DNA of 64,000 nt from a virus (taxonomy: Duplodnaviria > Caudoviricetes), in the IMG/VR virus record IMGVR_UViG_3300028364_000013; one strand, written 5' to 3'. Below are positions 16,173 to 56,865 of the stretch, in pieces; position 1 is the stretch's first letter, and every line of letters begins with the position of its first letter. Below the pieces are notes generated by a model. That model was not told the origin of the DNA. It worked only from the letters and a program-made list of their open reading frames with translations, and ran no database searches. The position numbers and the translations under genes were made by a program.

Positions 16173-16289
16173 GAGATTATTGTTTGTGTGGTTACGACAA
16201 TAAGGGGAGGCTGAAAAGTCTCCCTTTTCTTTGTTTGCCCCGAACGAGCGAAGCGTTGTAACTTTTTAAATAACCATCGTTATATGAAT

Positions 16290-16364
16290 GTAGGTAGGAA
16301 ACTGATACGGGCATGACATTTCAAAAATGGCGGAAGAGTAGACTCCAACACGCCCTCTTTTTTT
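16290..16364 (+). ncRNA. candidate sRNA, GAGTAGACTCCA family (copy A)
   Basis: own pA, no ORF, GGGC...GCCC stem plus T-run. Confidence 0.55.
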
Positions 16365-19021: not shown

Positions 19022-19238
19022 ATTGTAACTTTTTAAAATACAGTCGTTATACAGATAAGAACCAATAAAATAAAGAAGCCATGAAAAAAAGATTCTGATA
19101 CAGCAAAGTCTGAACTTCCAAAAAACAGAGATTAACAACTGCAAGAGCAGACCTGATTTTTCCTAATCATAACTCGTCCTCACAAGGGGCGGGAAAAACG
19201 TGATTTGTAACTTTTTGAAATCGTATCGTTATACAAAT

Positions 19239-19289
19239 AGGAAACGGGCCTGGCTTTATAAGTCGGAAGAGTAGACTCCAACCTGCCTT
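19239..19289 (+). ncRNA. candidate sRNA, GAGTAGACTCCA family (copy B)
   Basis: own pA; CTGGCTT-TAT-AAGTCGG hairpin plus GAAGAGTAGACTCCAACCTGCC. Confidence 0.6.
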
Positions 19290-19372
19290 ATATTTTCCTT
19301 GTTCGTCATGACGAATGAAATTGTAACTTTTTGAATTACTATCGTTATATGCTTGTAACCAATACAAAAGAC

Positions 19373-37597: not shown

Positions 37598-37626
37598 TTA
37601 TACGCAAATATAAGAATAAAGTTCTA
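37598..37626 (-). promoter_or_regulatory. class B promoter driving the tRNA cluster
   Basis: TAGAAC-N16-CGTATAA on minus strand. Confidence 0.7.
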
Positions 37627-42839: not shown

Positions 42840-42910
42840 GCCTACAAGCCTCCGTAACAGGGGGCTTTTTTGTGCTTTGTAACTTTTTGAATTCCTATCG
42901 TTATACACAT

Positions 42911-42963
42911 GGAGACGGGCACGACATTCAAAAATGGCGGAAGAGTAGACTCCAACCTGCCTT
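42911..42963 (+). ncRNA. candidate sRNA, GAGTAGACTCCA family (copy C)
   Basis: own pA; near-identical to copy A. Confidence 0.6.
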
Positions 42964-43060
42964 AAACTTTTTTGACCTATATTTTATTGTTTTAGGCGTT
43001 TTGTAACTTTTTGAATTGCCATCGTTATATAGTCATAACCAATAAAAAAACATTAAGACA

Positions 43061-48721: not shown

Positions 48722-49695
48722 AGCCAGGCCAAAACATAATTAAACAAATAGAAGACGGGAATTTCAATTTAAGTTCGCATCCAGTTTTTAGTCATAATCC
48801 AAAAAGATTAATGGATATTGGTTTTAATAAATCTCTTGAGTTAATTAAAAGAAGAGTTGGAGACCACAATCTCTCCCCAGTATATTTATTTAATTTATAT
48901 AAAACGTATCAATTTAAAATAGATATTATTGAGAGTAGCATTAAATCAGAGCTTGAACAAATAGCGGAAGATACAATTAGAGAAATGTATGATGTACCAG
49001 AAGATATAAATATTAAACCAAAGATTGTTAATCAAGATGATATTGAATATGATTTTGACTCTGAAAATGAAAAAATAGAAGTCTCCCCAGAAAGACTAAG
49101 ATTAATAAAAGAAGAAGCAAATAAAAGAATAATACTAAATTCTATTGTTCATGGTTCATCTGTTATGATTTGGTCAAGCGCATATTATATTGTAAAAGAA
49201 AAACTTGATGAATTAAATAATAAATTAATTGAACTATATGATATTTATTCTGCAGTTGTTAGTTATTTACTTTGGCTTCAGGAACCAAGTCAAGATTTGT
49301 CTGGAGTAGAAAAACAAGGAGTTTGTGAAATTGATTTTGAAGATGGATTAAGTTGTGAAGGAATAAATTTTCCAGTACTTTTATTGGAGACAAATAAAGT
49401 GGTGATTGATTATCTTATTTGTAAAGGTATACCAACCGATTTTAGTGAAGAAGAGTTAAAATTATATTATGCTCTTTCAGATGATTATAATCAAGAAATT
49501 TGGCATAATACATTGTCTCCAGTTATATATTCTGATTTTTTAGAAACAATAGAAATAGAATCAAATAAATTACCTGATGTAATATCAAAATTATCTCAAC
49601 TAAATTATGAAGAATTAAAAACTGTGTTCATATCTATACAACAAGATTCAAAAGAATCAGGAAAAATAGAACTTTTAAAATTTAAAATCGTATAA
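48718..49695 (+). CDS. hypothetical protein
   Basis: 325 aa ORF; stop is the TAA of a class B promoter. Confidence 0.85.
   Translation: MKPGQNIIKQIEDGNFNLSSHPVFSHNPKRLMDIGFNKSLELIKRRVGDHNLSPVYLFNLYKTYQFKIDIIESSIKSELEQIAEDTIREMYDVPEDINIKPKIVNQDDIEYDFDSENEKIEVSPERLRLIKEEANKRIILNSIVHGSSVMIWSSAYYIVKEKLDELNNKLIELYDIYSAVVSYLLWLQEPSQDLSGVEKQGVCEIDFEDGLSCEGINFPVLLLETNKVVIDYLICKGIPTDFSEEELKLYYALSDDYNQEIWHNTLSPVIYSDFLETIEIESNKLPDVISKLSQLNYEELKTVFISIQQDSKESGKIELLKFKIV
49667..49695 (+). promoter_or_regulatory. class B promoter upstream of the RadA-like/sigma region
   Basis: TAGAAC-N16-CGTATAA. Confidence 0.65.
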
Positions 49696-49701
49696 TATAA
49701 G

Positions 49702-49848
49702 ATGAGGAATATACAGATGATTGAACCTTTGGTAGAACCAAAGCCAGTTACGAAACCATCTCCAACGGAAAAGCCCAAGGAGAAACCAAGGAGAGGAGAC
49801 CCATGGACAGTGCCCGCACCGAAAGTGAACCCCACTCCAAAGGCCTGA
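49702..49848 (+). CDS. small proline-rich protein
   Basis: EPKPVTKPSPTEKPKENPRRGDPWTVPAPK. Confidence 0.6.
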   Translation: MRNIQMIEPLVEPKPVTKPSPTEKPKEKPRRGDPWTVPAPKVNPTPKA

Positions 49849-49899
49849 ATAATACAGACTGTAACTTTTTAAATATTAATCGTTATAAACATAATAGTC

Positions 49900-50109
49900 A
49901 TGAAGAAGAGAGATTTTAGCATAAAGAAAAAGATTATAAACAAAGGAGAGTATGATATGCTTAGAGGGATGATGACTGATGAAGCATTTTTCGATACATT
50001 CATAGTGTGTGACAAGTTGGTCACAAGAATGCTCGCTGCTGAGGCAGTAACATATGTAGCATTTACAGATGTTTCTCCAGTATACAATGATACAGCAAAA
50101 TTAAACTAA
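49900..50109 (+). CDS. hypothetical protein
   Basis: after pA. Confidence 0.7.
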   Translation: MKKRDFSIKKKIINKGEYDMLRGMMTDEAFFDTFIVCDKLVTRMLAAEAVTYVAFTDVSPVYNDTAKLN

Positions 50110-50116
50110 GATAAAG

Positions 50117-51025
50117 ATGAAAACGAAAAGAACATATGATGAAGTTGAGATTATTAATACTCCGTCTATTAAGACAGGGATTAAAACTCTTGACCTGTTC
50201 CTTTCTAACAATGGAGGGTTCGAACTTGGAAACCTGATTCTTATGACAGGAACTTCAGGTGCAGGTAAGACAACTCTTTGCAAACTGATTCAAAGAGAAA
50301 TTAAAAAACCAACATTATTTCACGCCTTAGAAAGTTTAGCGTCTTCAGTTAAGAGACAAACTCTTAGAATTAAAACACATTCCAACTGTTTTATTACTGA
50401 CGGGAAAGATTACCAAGACTTTGATGAGTTCATGGATTTCATTTATAGAGATAAGCCAAGATTTGTTATGGTTGATTCACTTCAACACGCTGTGAAACAA
50501 CTTAGGAAAAAAGGCATGGGAAAAGATGAGGCTTACCACCACGTACTGGACTCTTTATACAGATGGAAAGATGAGACGCAAGGAATTGTAATTCTTATTT
50601 GTCAGTTGAATAAAGACAACACGTTTTCAGGACCGTCAGGAATGTTGTTCGATGCGGATGTTCAGGTACACTTAGAGTACAACTCTAAAACAGGAGTTAG
50701 AACAATGGATACGAAGAAAAATAGAATGGGTCAACTGGACTCGATTTATTATGAGTTCTCTTCAGGAGTTGAGGTGATGAAGTTCTACACTCAAGAAGAA
50801 TGGGATGTAATTAAAATGGGTGTCACTTTGCCAGAGATGTTAATGAACATCATCTTCCAGTATTCAAACGCCTACAGGAACCACGATTCGTATTCTGTAT
50901 TTAAGAAAGAATTCAACAAGAAGATTAAGGTGATTTATAATTCTATTGATGATGACCTTGAGATTTGTTTATCAGTTACAAAACTGATGAGTGAATTAAC
51001 TAAAAAGTATTTTGTAACTTTTTAA
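50117..51025 (+). CDS. RadA/Sms-like RecA-family ATPase
   Basis: Walker A GTSGAGKTT, Walker B VMVDSLQ, SGP....DADVQVHL, KNR. Confidence 0.8.
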   Translation: MKTKRTYDEVEIINTPSIKTGIKTLDLFLSNNGGFELGNLILMTGTSGAGKTTLCKLIQREIKKPTLFHALESLASSVKRQTLRIKTHSNCFITDGKDYQDFDEFMDFIYRDKPRFVMVDSLQHAVKQLRKKGMGKDEAYHHVLDSLYRWKDETQGIVILICQLNKDNTFSGPSGMLFDADVQVHLEYNSKTGVRTMDTKKNRMGQLDSIYYEFSSGVEVMKFYTQEEWDVIKMGVTLPEMLMNIIFQYSNAYRNHDSYSVFKKEFNKKIKVIYNSIDDDLEICLSVTKLMSELTKKYFVTF

Positions 51026-51069
51026 ATAACCATCGTTATACATACACGAACCAATAAATAGAGAGAGAT

Positions 51070-51711
51070 ATGACAAACGTAAAGAAAGATTCAGAACAAG
51101 CTACTAAAGATAAAGCAAACGTAGCAGTGCTTCAAGATATTAATGCCACAGCAAGAGCAAAAGATGATGCTTTTAGTAAGCTGTATGGTAGACACAACCA
51201 ACAAGTCCGCATTCACTTCCTCAAGAGATTGAGAGATACAGATGTTGCTGAGGATTTGCTTATGATAACTTTTGTAAAGGCGCATGAGAACATTAACACT
51301 TATGACCCAAAAGTGGGTGCATTTTCTACTTGGTTGTACAAGATTGCAAACAACTCTTTGATTGACTTGTTGAGAAAAGCAAAGTTCGAAGTTCTTTCTT
51401 TGGATTCGCTTCAAAGTAAGACGTCAGACGACAATGATGGAATGGAATTTCAATTAGATTCAGATACTCCAAACCCATTGCAAATTCTTGTTCATGATGA
51501 GGTAACAAAACAAGTTTCTGATGCAGTTAATTCTATTAAGTCCAAAAAAGTTCGTGAATTAATGATTTGCAGATACATTGATGAAATGAGTTTTGAAGAA
51601 ACGGCAAAGGCTCTTGGTCTTGAATTGAATTCAACACTTAGAACAGCTGTTGCAAGAGGTAAAGAGATTCTTAAAAAGAAATTAGCTAACCTTGAAAATA
51701 ATGTCTCATAA
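51070..51711 (+). CDS. RNA polymerase ECF sigma factor (sigma70 group 4, SigW/RpoE-like)
   Basis: region 2 VAEDLL...FSTWLYKIANNSLIDLLRK; region 4 RYIDEMSFEETAKALG...RGKEILKKKL; lacks regions 1.1 and 3. Confidence 0.92.
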   Translation: MTNVKKDSEQATKDKANVAVLQDINATARAKDDAFSKLYGRHNQQVRIHFLKRLRDTDVAEDLLMITFVKAHENINTYDPKVGAFSTWLYKIANNSLIDLLRKAKFEVLSLDSLQSKTSDDNDGMEFQLDSDTPNPLQILVHDEVTKQVSDAVNSIKSKKVRELMICRYIDEMSFEETAKALGLELNSTLRTAVARGKEILKKKLANLENNVS

Positions 51712-51942
51712 CATAAAACCAACGGTCTTATGACCGACCCCATACTACTGGGATGTGATAGTGTAGTGACTATTGTCTGGAAGTAGTGTTATGATAAAAA
51801 GCTATTAGTTCGGTGAATGAAGCAAAGCGTTAGCGCCAATAGTTTAAGTGCCCCGTGGTTATGATACACCACGGGGTTTTTTGTGCGTTGCCCCGAACGA
51901 GCGCAGCGTTGTAACTTTTTAAATATCCATCGTTATACAAAT

Positions 51943-52022
51943 AAGAAAAGGGCCTGGCGGAGAAAGTCGGAAGAGTAGACTCCAACGTGCGTTGGATTTT
52001 GTGAACAAGCTCCAACCTGCCC
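51943..52022 (+). ncRNA. candidate sRNA, GAGTAGACTCCA family (copy D)
   Basis: own pA; second CTCCAACCTGCCC at about 52010. Confidence 0.55.
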
Positions 52023-52105
52023 AATACTCTCGTGAAATATAAATTTATAATTTTAGAAAAATAAAGCCCGTTATTAACATATCGCCTAAAAAAGATTGTT
52101 TTAGG

Positions 52106-52134
52106 TAGAACATTTTAAAATCTCTTACGTATAA
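52106..52134 (+). promoter_or_regulatory. class B ECF-like promoter
   Basis: TAGAAC-N16-CGTATAA. Confidence 0.7.
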
Positions 52135-52280
52135 GATAATGAAAGAACAAATAGATTTATATTTTTTACACTTTGTAACATTTTGTAACATTTTGTAACT
52201 TTTTAAATCTATGTCGTTATACAGTCATAACCAATGACCGCAGGGCAAGACCTGCTTTGCAGTCGCAAAAAACAATTATT

Positions 52281-53156
52281 ATGAAAAATGAAAATGCATT
52301 TAACTGGGACATTAAGCAAACAGGAATTCTTGACATTAATGGAAACCCTATAAAAGGGTACAAAGAAATTACTCGTGATGACAATGGGTCAAGCATTGCT
52401 GTTATGAAAGAGTCTTATACGCCAATGACAACTCAACAATTCTCTGATACAGCAAACGAAGTTGCAGGTGCAATTGGAGGTTCTGGACTTATTTTTAAGG
52501 ATTGGAATGACAATAGTGTTGAAGGGCAAATGGGAGCTAACAAGCCCGTGATTACTTGTCAGATGGAAATGAGCGAGCCTCTTGAGATTGCAGGCTCAAA
52601 GATTGAAGGTAAGTTAACAATTGGTGTTGGATTTGACGGAGGGCGTAGCTTCTTTATTGGTCACACAAATACTTACCTTAGATGCACAAATGAATTCTCT
52701 TCAATTGTGAAGGACTTCAAAAGCAGACTTACTGTAAATAACATGGTAAGAGTTGAAGACATTATTAAAAACATTCAAACGTATAGAGATTACGAAAGAA
52801 ATTTATACGAAAACTTTGAGAGATTTCATAACACAAAAATTGATGAAAAGATTGTTCAAGAATGTCTTGCACGTCTTGTTGATTTGACTGTTGAAGAGAG
52901 AGCAATGACTGTTAAGGAGAGAAACACAGAGTTGTCTTCTCAAAAGTTGAACAAGATTGATGACATTACTGCAAGTATTAGAACAGAAATGGCAGAGCTT
53001 GGTAACAACGCTTGGGGATTATTCAATGGGGTCACACATTATTCTACACATATTATGAACTCAAGAGGTTCAAATGAGTTGAGTACAATGTTCGGAGCAA
53101 AGAACAAAGCAAACCAAATTGTTTATGGCTTAGGTCTTGAATTACTTGATGCATAA
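52281..53156 (+). CDS. DUF932-family phage/plasmid protein
   Basis: FDG....GHTNTYLRCTN and NAWGLFNGVTHY motifs. Confidence 0.75.
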   Translation: MKNENAFNWDIKQTGILDINGNPIKGYKEITRDDNGSSIAVMKESYTPMTTQQFSDTANEVAGAIGGSGLIFKDWNDNSVEGQMGANKPVITCQMEMSEPLEIAGSKIEGKLTIGVGFDGGRSFFIGHTNTYLRCTNEFSSIVKDFKSRLTVNNMVRVEDIIKNIQTYRDYERNLYENFERFHNTKIDEKIVQECLARLVDLTVEERAMTVKERNTELSSQKLNKIDDITASIRTEMAELGNNAWGLFNGVTHYSTHIMNSRGSNELSTMFGAKNKANQIVYGLGLELLDA

Positions 53157-56598: not shown

Positions 56599-56712
56599 AC
56601 CCTGAACACAAATATATGAAAACCTTCAGCTATGCTGGGGGTTTTTTTTTGTCCAGTCGGGACTGGTCAAATTCAGATTTGTAACTTTTTAAAAACACAT
56701 CGTTATACAAAT

Positions 56713-56780
56713 GTCGATGCGAACAGCGAGACGGGTCTGGTCACCGAGGTGAACCGAAAGAGTAGACTCCAGCCTGCCTT
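56713..56780 (+). ncRNA. candidate sRNA, GAGTAGACTCCA family (copy E)
   Basis: own pA; hairpin GGTCAC-CGAG-GTG-A-ACC replaces the copy B hairpin. Confidence 0.6.
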
Positions 56781-56865
56781 ATATTTTCTTGCCAACCATT
56801 TTGTAAGCGAATCGGAAAAAGATTTTATTCTTTGTAACTTTTTAAATTCTTATCGTTATACAAGT

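Follow-up and report, generated by a model that had tools for sequence, protein, structure and literature searches.

Sigma gene and its transcription unit

The window, a stretch of 64,000 nucleotides corresponding to bases 32279-96278 (reverse strand) of a 142-kb IMG/VR virus record, carries the gene of an ECF (group 4) sigma factor. From 5′ to 3′, the locus comprises a 325-aa gene containing a class B promoter (49667), a 48-aa ORF, a class A promoter (49860), a 69-aa ORF, the gene of a RadA/KaiC-like ATPase, a second class A promoter (51013) and the sigma gene (Table 1). These are followed by a terminator, a class A copy (51910) with a small RNA unit, a class B copy (52106), a class A copy (52194) and a DUF932 gene. 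An identical copy of the sigma protein was found on contigs of up to 364 kb, and the 142-kb record is therefore a fragment of a giant phage; the source is an uncultured giant phage of lake water with a genome of ~364 kb. The fragment also encodes NAPRTase, NAD synthase, PARP, a CCA-adding/polyA-polymerase-like enzyme, two amidases and GIY-YIG homing endonucleases; genes for structural proteins, DNA polymerase or RNA polymerase were not found in it. A comparison of the 325-aa upstream protein with the ESM Atlas gave no usable match.

Table 1. Positions of the genes, promoters and RNA elements of the sigma locus in the window.
Feature	Position	Strand	Remarks
Class B promoter (SigW-type, TAGAAC-N16-CGTATAA) heading the sigma operon	49667-49695	+	inside last codons and stop of the 325-aa gene
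48-aa Pro/Lys-rich ORF	49702-49848	+	ATG 6 nt past class B -10
Class A copy	49860-49887	+	motif search
69-aa conserved ORF, same orientation as sigma	49900-50109	+	ORF and homologue comparison
RadA/KaiC-like P-loop ATPase, 302 aa	50117-51025	+	Pfam, NCBIfam and PHROG profiles
Class A copy	51013-51040	+	30 nt before sigma ATG; -35 box overlaps stop codon of upstream gene
ECF (group 4) sigma factor gene, 213 aa	51070-51711	+	Pfam, NCBIfam TIGR02937, SigW alignment, PHROGs
Intrinsic terminator closing the sigma transcription unit	51850-51884	+	hairpin 51850-51877, then T-run
Class A copy before small RNA unit	51910-51937	+	motif search
Small non-coding RNA unit, ~59 nt	51943-52001	+	behind class A 51910; ends in hairpin and T-run (51981-52001)
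Class B copy between sigma and DUF932 gene	52106-52134	+	site kept in relatives
Class A copy before DUF932 gene (52257-53156)	52194-52221	+	motif search

The original prediction described a 213-aa protein with sigma-2 and sigma-4 regions and the segment FSTWLYKIANN, which is present in the product of ORF 51070-51711. The NCBIfam model TIGR02937 (sigma70-ECF) matched the protein over its full length (80.9 bits, cut-off 42.9), and the phmmer alignment with B. subtilis SigW (PDB 5WUQ) covered residues 24 to 207 (E 4.6e-17); both bear this description out. Pfam Sigma70_r2 was recognised with an E value of 1.1e-14 (54 bits, cut-off 24), the r4_2 match was weak (19.1 bits, under the cut-off of 25.7), and PHROGs labelled the product a sigma factor. 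The protein shows the hallmarks of the ECF family: a sigma-2 core-binding and melting segment (FSTWLYKIA conserved), a sigma-4 helix-turn-helix, neither region 1.1 nor region 3, and a length of ~200 aa. The best specific NCBIfam matches were the SigW models (PRK09641 and TIGR02948), but the scores of 100.7 and 81.3 stayed below the equivalog cut-offs of 209 and 243, respectively. Judged by these profiles, the product is a genuine ECF-type sigma factor and not a SigW orthologue. It is predicted to bind the RNA polymerase core and to start transcription at AAC/CGT promoters. A search for a second sigma in the 142-kb record yielded none; the only match was a weak r4_2-like one inside a GIY-YIG/NUMOD homing endonuclease.

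The promoters proposed earlier were all recovered. The class A promoter said to overlap the end of the RadA-like gene is the copy at 51013-51040, which covers the stop codon of the gene ending at 51025; the further class A promoter at 49860 occupies 49860-49887, and the class B promoter at 49667 was confirmed as one of ~25 copies in 142 kb. The mRNA of the 48-aa ORF is probably leaderless, because its ATG lies so close to the class B -10 element. The first strong terminator on the plus strand after 49667 is the hairpin at 51850-51877, a stem of 10 pairs, seven of them G-C, which is preserved by compensatory changes in the related lineages L106 and L108; the two terminator-like sites before 51850 are weak (5-6 pairs) and both lie inside ORFs. 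The 140-nt 3′ untranslated stretch from the sigma stop to the terminator (51712-51850) folds more stably than shuffled controls (z = -3.25).

Downstream of sigma, a terminator and a small RNA candidate had been anticipated, and we found them at 51850-51877 and 51943-52001 (~60 nt). Five copies of the latter unit, this one included, occur in the window and have a common GGAAGAGTAGACTCC core. These ~60-nt units, each behind a class A promoter, are located at 16285-16345, 19234-19295, 42906-42970, 51943-52001 and 56708-56790. All have GA.ACGGGC at the 5′ end and contain an invariant GAGTAGACTCC core, with CTGCC and a T-run after it. Rfam gave no match to them at the gathering threshold. Related small units occur at the same post-sigma position in lineages L014 and L108.

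ECF genes are normally autoregulated from the promoter directly upstream, and an ECF sigma/anti-sigma pair would bring a co-transcribed zf-HC2, RskA or toastrack partner; no such gene was found with sigma. The domains zf-HC2 (PF13490) and DUF4097 (PF13349) were absent from the 142-kb record, the ORFs adjoining sigma gave no anti-sigma match with Pfam or PHROG, and no anti-sigma domain was detected in 10 related phage loci. The absence of an adjacent anti-sigma, noted in the original prediction, is thus supported for the recognisable families only (Pfam, PHROG, 142-kb domain search).

Two ECF-like promoter classes

The class A promoters follow the motif TGTAAC-N15-CGTTATA, or TGTAACTTTTTAAAT-N5-TCGTTATA in full. 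With up to three mismatches allowed, the window contained 74 matches against an expectation of zero. Seventy-one of them are on the plus strand, and all are confined to an island between 13024 and 56860; the remainder of the 142-kb record contained none. The class A logo covers positions -37 to -6 and runs on into a common A-rich leader without a Shine-Dalgarno sequence. The exact motif was sought in other viral contigs and not found there. The sequence ruled out a Bacteroidota promoter of the TTTG/TAnnTTTG type for class A. Three tandem TTTGTAACATT boxes were observed at 52165-52200, directly 5′ of the class A copy at 52194.

Class B has the motif TAGAAC-N16-CGTATAA, which can also be written (A)TAGAACATTT-N12-CGTATAA and amounts to AAC-N16-CGT. 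Its ~25 copies occur on both strands and are spread over the whole 142-kb record. Reading class B as a sigma-70-type promoter was rejected, since CGTA is invariant while the would-be T-7 base varies. Start codons lie close to a number of copies of both classes: an ATG is found exactly 5 nt past TCGTTATA in ~10 class A copies (16377, 17338, 22738, 24662, 28799, 35199, 35755, 36074, 37644 and 54522) and 5-7 nt past CGTATAA in many class B copies (994, 49667 and others). From this spacing, which would put CGT at about -12 to -10, leaderless mRNAs are predicted.

The 142-kb record contains a third promoter class, made up of host-type TTTG..TAnnTTTG sites, none of which stands directly before the sigma gene. 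The class B copy at 37626 (minus strand) overlaps a host-type TTTG..TATATTTG site and precedes a cluster of tRNA-Met and tRNA-Glu genes. As in a phage sigma cascade, the genome thus combines a phage-encoded sigma with a promoter class of ~25 copies separate from the host-type sites. Among the ~100 promoters in the 142 kb of the phage record, no A/B hybrid was found, which suggests that the two classes would have separate readers.

Conservation of the locus in related phages

A protein search identified 36 sigma homologues of 204-219 aa with 45-94% identity. Searches with nucleotides 49000-53000 against phage records (blastn) gave no match, and no relatives of sigma were found in the viral contigs collection. 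We compared the window with 14 further lineages read as DNA; across these 15, the sigma proteins are 44-100% identical. The synteny is kept: a ParB-like gene, the 325/363-aa gene, small ORFs, sigma, a gap of ~350 nt and DUF932. In lineage L017, an OrfB_IS605/Cas12f-like TnpB gene (L017:11321-12514) lies 2.6 kb past sigma and is probably a plain IS insertion.

A class A copy precedes the sigma gene by 30-65 nt in all 15 lineages. Sufficient upstream DNA was available for 13 lineages, and in 9 of these a class B copy stands at the head of the operon, 0.43-1.4 kb before sigma, at a conserved site where the 325/363-aa gene ends; the upstream copy is absent from L027, L028, L030 and L108. The two classes differ in their constancy. 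Where present (11 lineages), class B reads AAC(A/T)T..CGTATAA, and nearly all copies have a spacer of 16 nt. For class A, the variant TTGTAAC..TCGTTATA of the window recurs in L106, while L018, L020 and L026 have TCGCTATA at -10 (CGC for CGT), and L014 and L019 combine a TTTTACCT spacer with TCGTTATG at -10. The -35 box is GTCAC in L016 and GTGAC in L108. L017 carries TTGTGATTTTTGAGA..TTGTTAGAG, with GTGAT at -35 and TGT for CGT, and L027 and L030 have TTGTTATA at -10, also with TGT for CGT.

Specificity of the sigma factor

In the window lineage, class A has the architecture of a canonical ECF promoter (G-35, AAC, CGT), so the sigma could read it. The contacts between ECF residues and promoter bases are known from structures and from the work of Todor et al., who combined mutual information with mutagenesis (PMC6713349, PMC1540707, PMC6411747, PMC7776599). 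For RpoE, R171 reads position -31, S172 reads -34 and R176 reads G-35, while at the -10 element K56 and N80 read the T of CGT and N84 reads its C and G (PMC6713349, PMC1540707, PMC6411747, PMC7776599). Through the SigW alignment, the corresponding phage residues are R191, residue 192 and R196 for the -35 readers, and K70, N95 and D99 for K56, N80 and N84. Among more than 30 homologues, K70, D99 and R196 show little or no variation, R191 is replaced by K in one lineage only, and N95 by H in one clade only.

Class B is constant at every base read by K70, N95, D99, R191 and R196. Class A, by comparison, changes at these coded bases, with T at -31 in L017, C for the T of CGT in L018, L020 and L026, and T for the C of CGT in L017, L027 and L030, and none of these changes has a matching change in the partner residue of sigma. 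Conversely, the window and L106 have an identical class A motif, yet 8 of the 11 recognition-helix residues 188-198 differ between them. The class B assignment is favoured because class A varies at the coded bases while the partner residues of sigma do not, and because class B is constant across the lineages.

These data bear directly on the first and preferred model of the original prediction, in which class A is the target of the sigma. With its own promoter at 51013 included, the sigma would command a private positive-feedback regulon of 74 promoters, primed from the class B promoter at 49667 via another factor. The position of class A directly before sigma throughout the 15 lineages and its confinement to an island that contains the sigma gene speak for this model, as do the ECF architecture and the ATG spacing that puts CGT at -12 to -10. 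Furthermore, class A and sigma both drift, and residues 195 and 198 of the recognition helix together with the specificity loop, all of which vary among lineages, could follow the promoter; each of the three lineages without A at -33 has a unique residue 195. The coded-base changes left unmatched by K70, N95, D99 or R191, and the identical motifs of the window and L106, argue against it. In addition, the nearest cellular relatives use N16-CGTA rather than N15-CGTT, and a second SigW-type sigma, of which none was seen, would be needed for class B. We therefore consider class A autoregulation rather unlikely. The promoter anatomy underlying both models of the original prediction was confirmed and is conserved (class A in 15 of 15 lineages, class B in 9 of 13); its alternative, that the sigma reads class B, is the one favoured by the drift of class A, the constancy of class B and the promoters of the cellular homologues.

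Residue 192 and the -35 element of class B vary together: TAGAAC (G at -34) prevails in T192 lineages, and V192 lineages have TTG(A/T)AAC only, a co-variation that represents a single split in the sigma tree. In L109, class B is represented by the operon-head promoter only, and its GAAAC, which occurs in the T192 and V192 groups alike, cannot separate the two. A link between K198 and the AAC core, perfect in 11 lineages, was dropped because L106 (V198, GTAAC) and L108 (K198, GTGAC) break the pattern.

A single sigma might also read both classes with differing strength or timing, perhaps with the help of a phage cofactor. The AAC and CGT cores are common to both classes in the window lineage, both -35 boxes are TTGTAAC in L027 and L028, and one sigma only was found in the 142 kb. 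Hybrid promoters do occur in two related lineages: before the sigma gene of L107 (315-345), a class-B-like GAAACATTT box is combined with N16 spacing and a CGTTAT -10 element, and in L108 (1275-1305) the class A GTGAC box is followed by CGTATAT at -10. Against such a reader, class A of L017 (TTGTGAT..TTGTTAGAG) has neither core of class B, the ~100 promoters of the present genome include no hybrids, and ECF sigmas are reported to be strongly affected by single-base changes (PMC7776599). On this balance, dual recognition appears improbable.

The cellular relatives provided further information on the specificity. The 69 nearest cellular ECFs have the FSTWLYKIA.N..ID..RK segment and the short specificity loop in common with the phage sigma. 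In the 250 nt upstream of their genes, AAC-N16-CGTA was found 12 times, whereas ~1 occurrence was expected from the loci overall, and most of these sites lie 0-26 nt from the start codon; neither N15 spacing nor CGTT was enriched there. The class B assignment is also favoured because the nearest cellular homologues carry promoters of the class B type. These relatives, at 31-38% identity, form a family with toastrack neighbours (L032-L105), in which the sigma-2 reading segment and the short loop are nearly identical to those of the phage protein and the genes have GAAAC-N16-CGTA directly upstream. However, these cellular proteins have A and F at positions 192 and 195, where the phage proteins have T/V and a variable residue, and the phage sigma is followed by a terminator, the small RNA unit and DUF932 instead of a toastrack or zf-HC2 gene. 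A toastrack or zf-HC2 protein follows sigma in 6 of the 10 cellular relatives sampled. In L032, L041, L048, L065 and L067, a ~300-aa toastrack (DUF4097/LiaF-like) protein is encoded after the cellular sigma, and none in the phage loci; these proteins are likely regulators of their ECFs.

B. subtilis SigW is the best structural and NCBIfam match. The promoter of SigW is TGAAAC-N16-CGTA, and the AAC-N16-CGTA geometry of its targets is that of class B. Both proteins have the FSTWLY(K/R)IA.N..ID segment. Their -10 determinants are a basic residue, N and D, and those for -35 are K/R-T-..-R. The phage sigma differs in being phage-encoded and only ~30% identical, in having ~15 extra conserved N-terminal residues, and in the absence of an RsiW-type anti-sigma from its locus.

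The wide distribution of cousins with the same sigma-2 determinants in cells, including low-GC contigs, could also mean that a host ECF of this family reads class B and that the phage sigma supplements or replaces it, or that the gene is a recent passenger without a dedicated regulon. Yet 15 lineages have the gene in syntenic position, with 44-94% identity and constant length; because such conservation argues for an essential role in the phage, we regard both variants as very improbable.

We thus hold it fairly probable that class B is the target of the sigma, which would reinforce its own expression through the promoter at 49667, the class A island being read by another factor. In this model, the sigma would join the host RNA polymerase core and, like its cellular relatives, would retain a SigW-type specificity for (G)AAC-N16-CGTA, and its targets would therefore be the class B promoters throughout the phage genome. 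The copy at 49667 would be among them, giving positive feedback on the sigma operon, and through the class A copy at 51013 the sigma gene would belong to the island of 74 promoters, fired by a different and faster-evolving factor. Activation of the island would lead to synthesis of sigma, which would then turn on the class B genes and reinforce its own expression; no anti-sigma would be required because transcription itself would set the timing. With both a class A (51013) and a class B (49667) promoter upstream of sigma, we infer its true target, and this order of events, from the comparisons. A search for the class A reader in the 142-kb record of the ~364-kb genome found none. Tentatively, the two classes could form a two-step relay consisting entirely of ECF-type promoters. 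A fast-evolving factor not encoded in the DNA shown, either a virion-carried sigma or a host envelope-stress ECF released by infection, could fire the island at entry, and the SigW-like sigma encoded in the island would then take charge of the class B promoters throughout the genome.

Class B is accordingly the probable regulon of the sole canonical sigma seen in 142 kb of this ~364-kb phage, and assigning to a sigma the promoter directly upstream of its gene can mislead in phages. The question posed is which factor reads 74 near-identical, fast-drifting ECF-like promoters. The 15 natural sets of sigma and promoters constitute a panel for testing the ECF specificity code and for finding orthogonal pairs.

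Redirection of the host polymerase by a phage-encoded sigma is well known, examples being SPO1 gp28, phiEco32 gp36 and Salmonella phage 7-11 gp47, and the present sigma belongs to that kind, in which the host core is steered to a phage-specific promoter class. To our knowledge, none of these three has an anti-sigma. In 7-11, phiEco32 and SPO1 the sigma gene relies on the host primary sigma for its transcription, whereas here it stands behind two ECF-type promoters. What is unusual is the location of the sigma gene within a second, fast-drifting ECF-like class of 74 copies, which sets this genome apart from those three phages, and the loss of the partner gene of its cellular cousins. The promoter recognised by 7-11 gp47 is bipartite, GTAAtg-N16-aCTA (PMC8948821).
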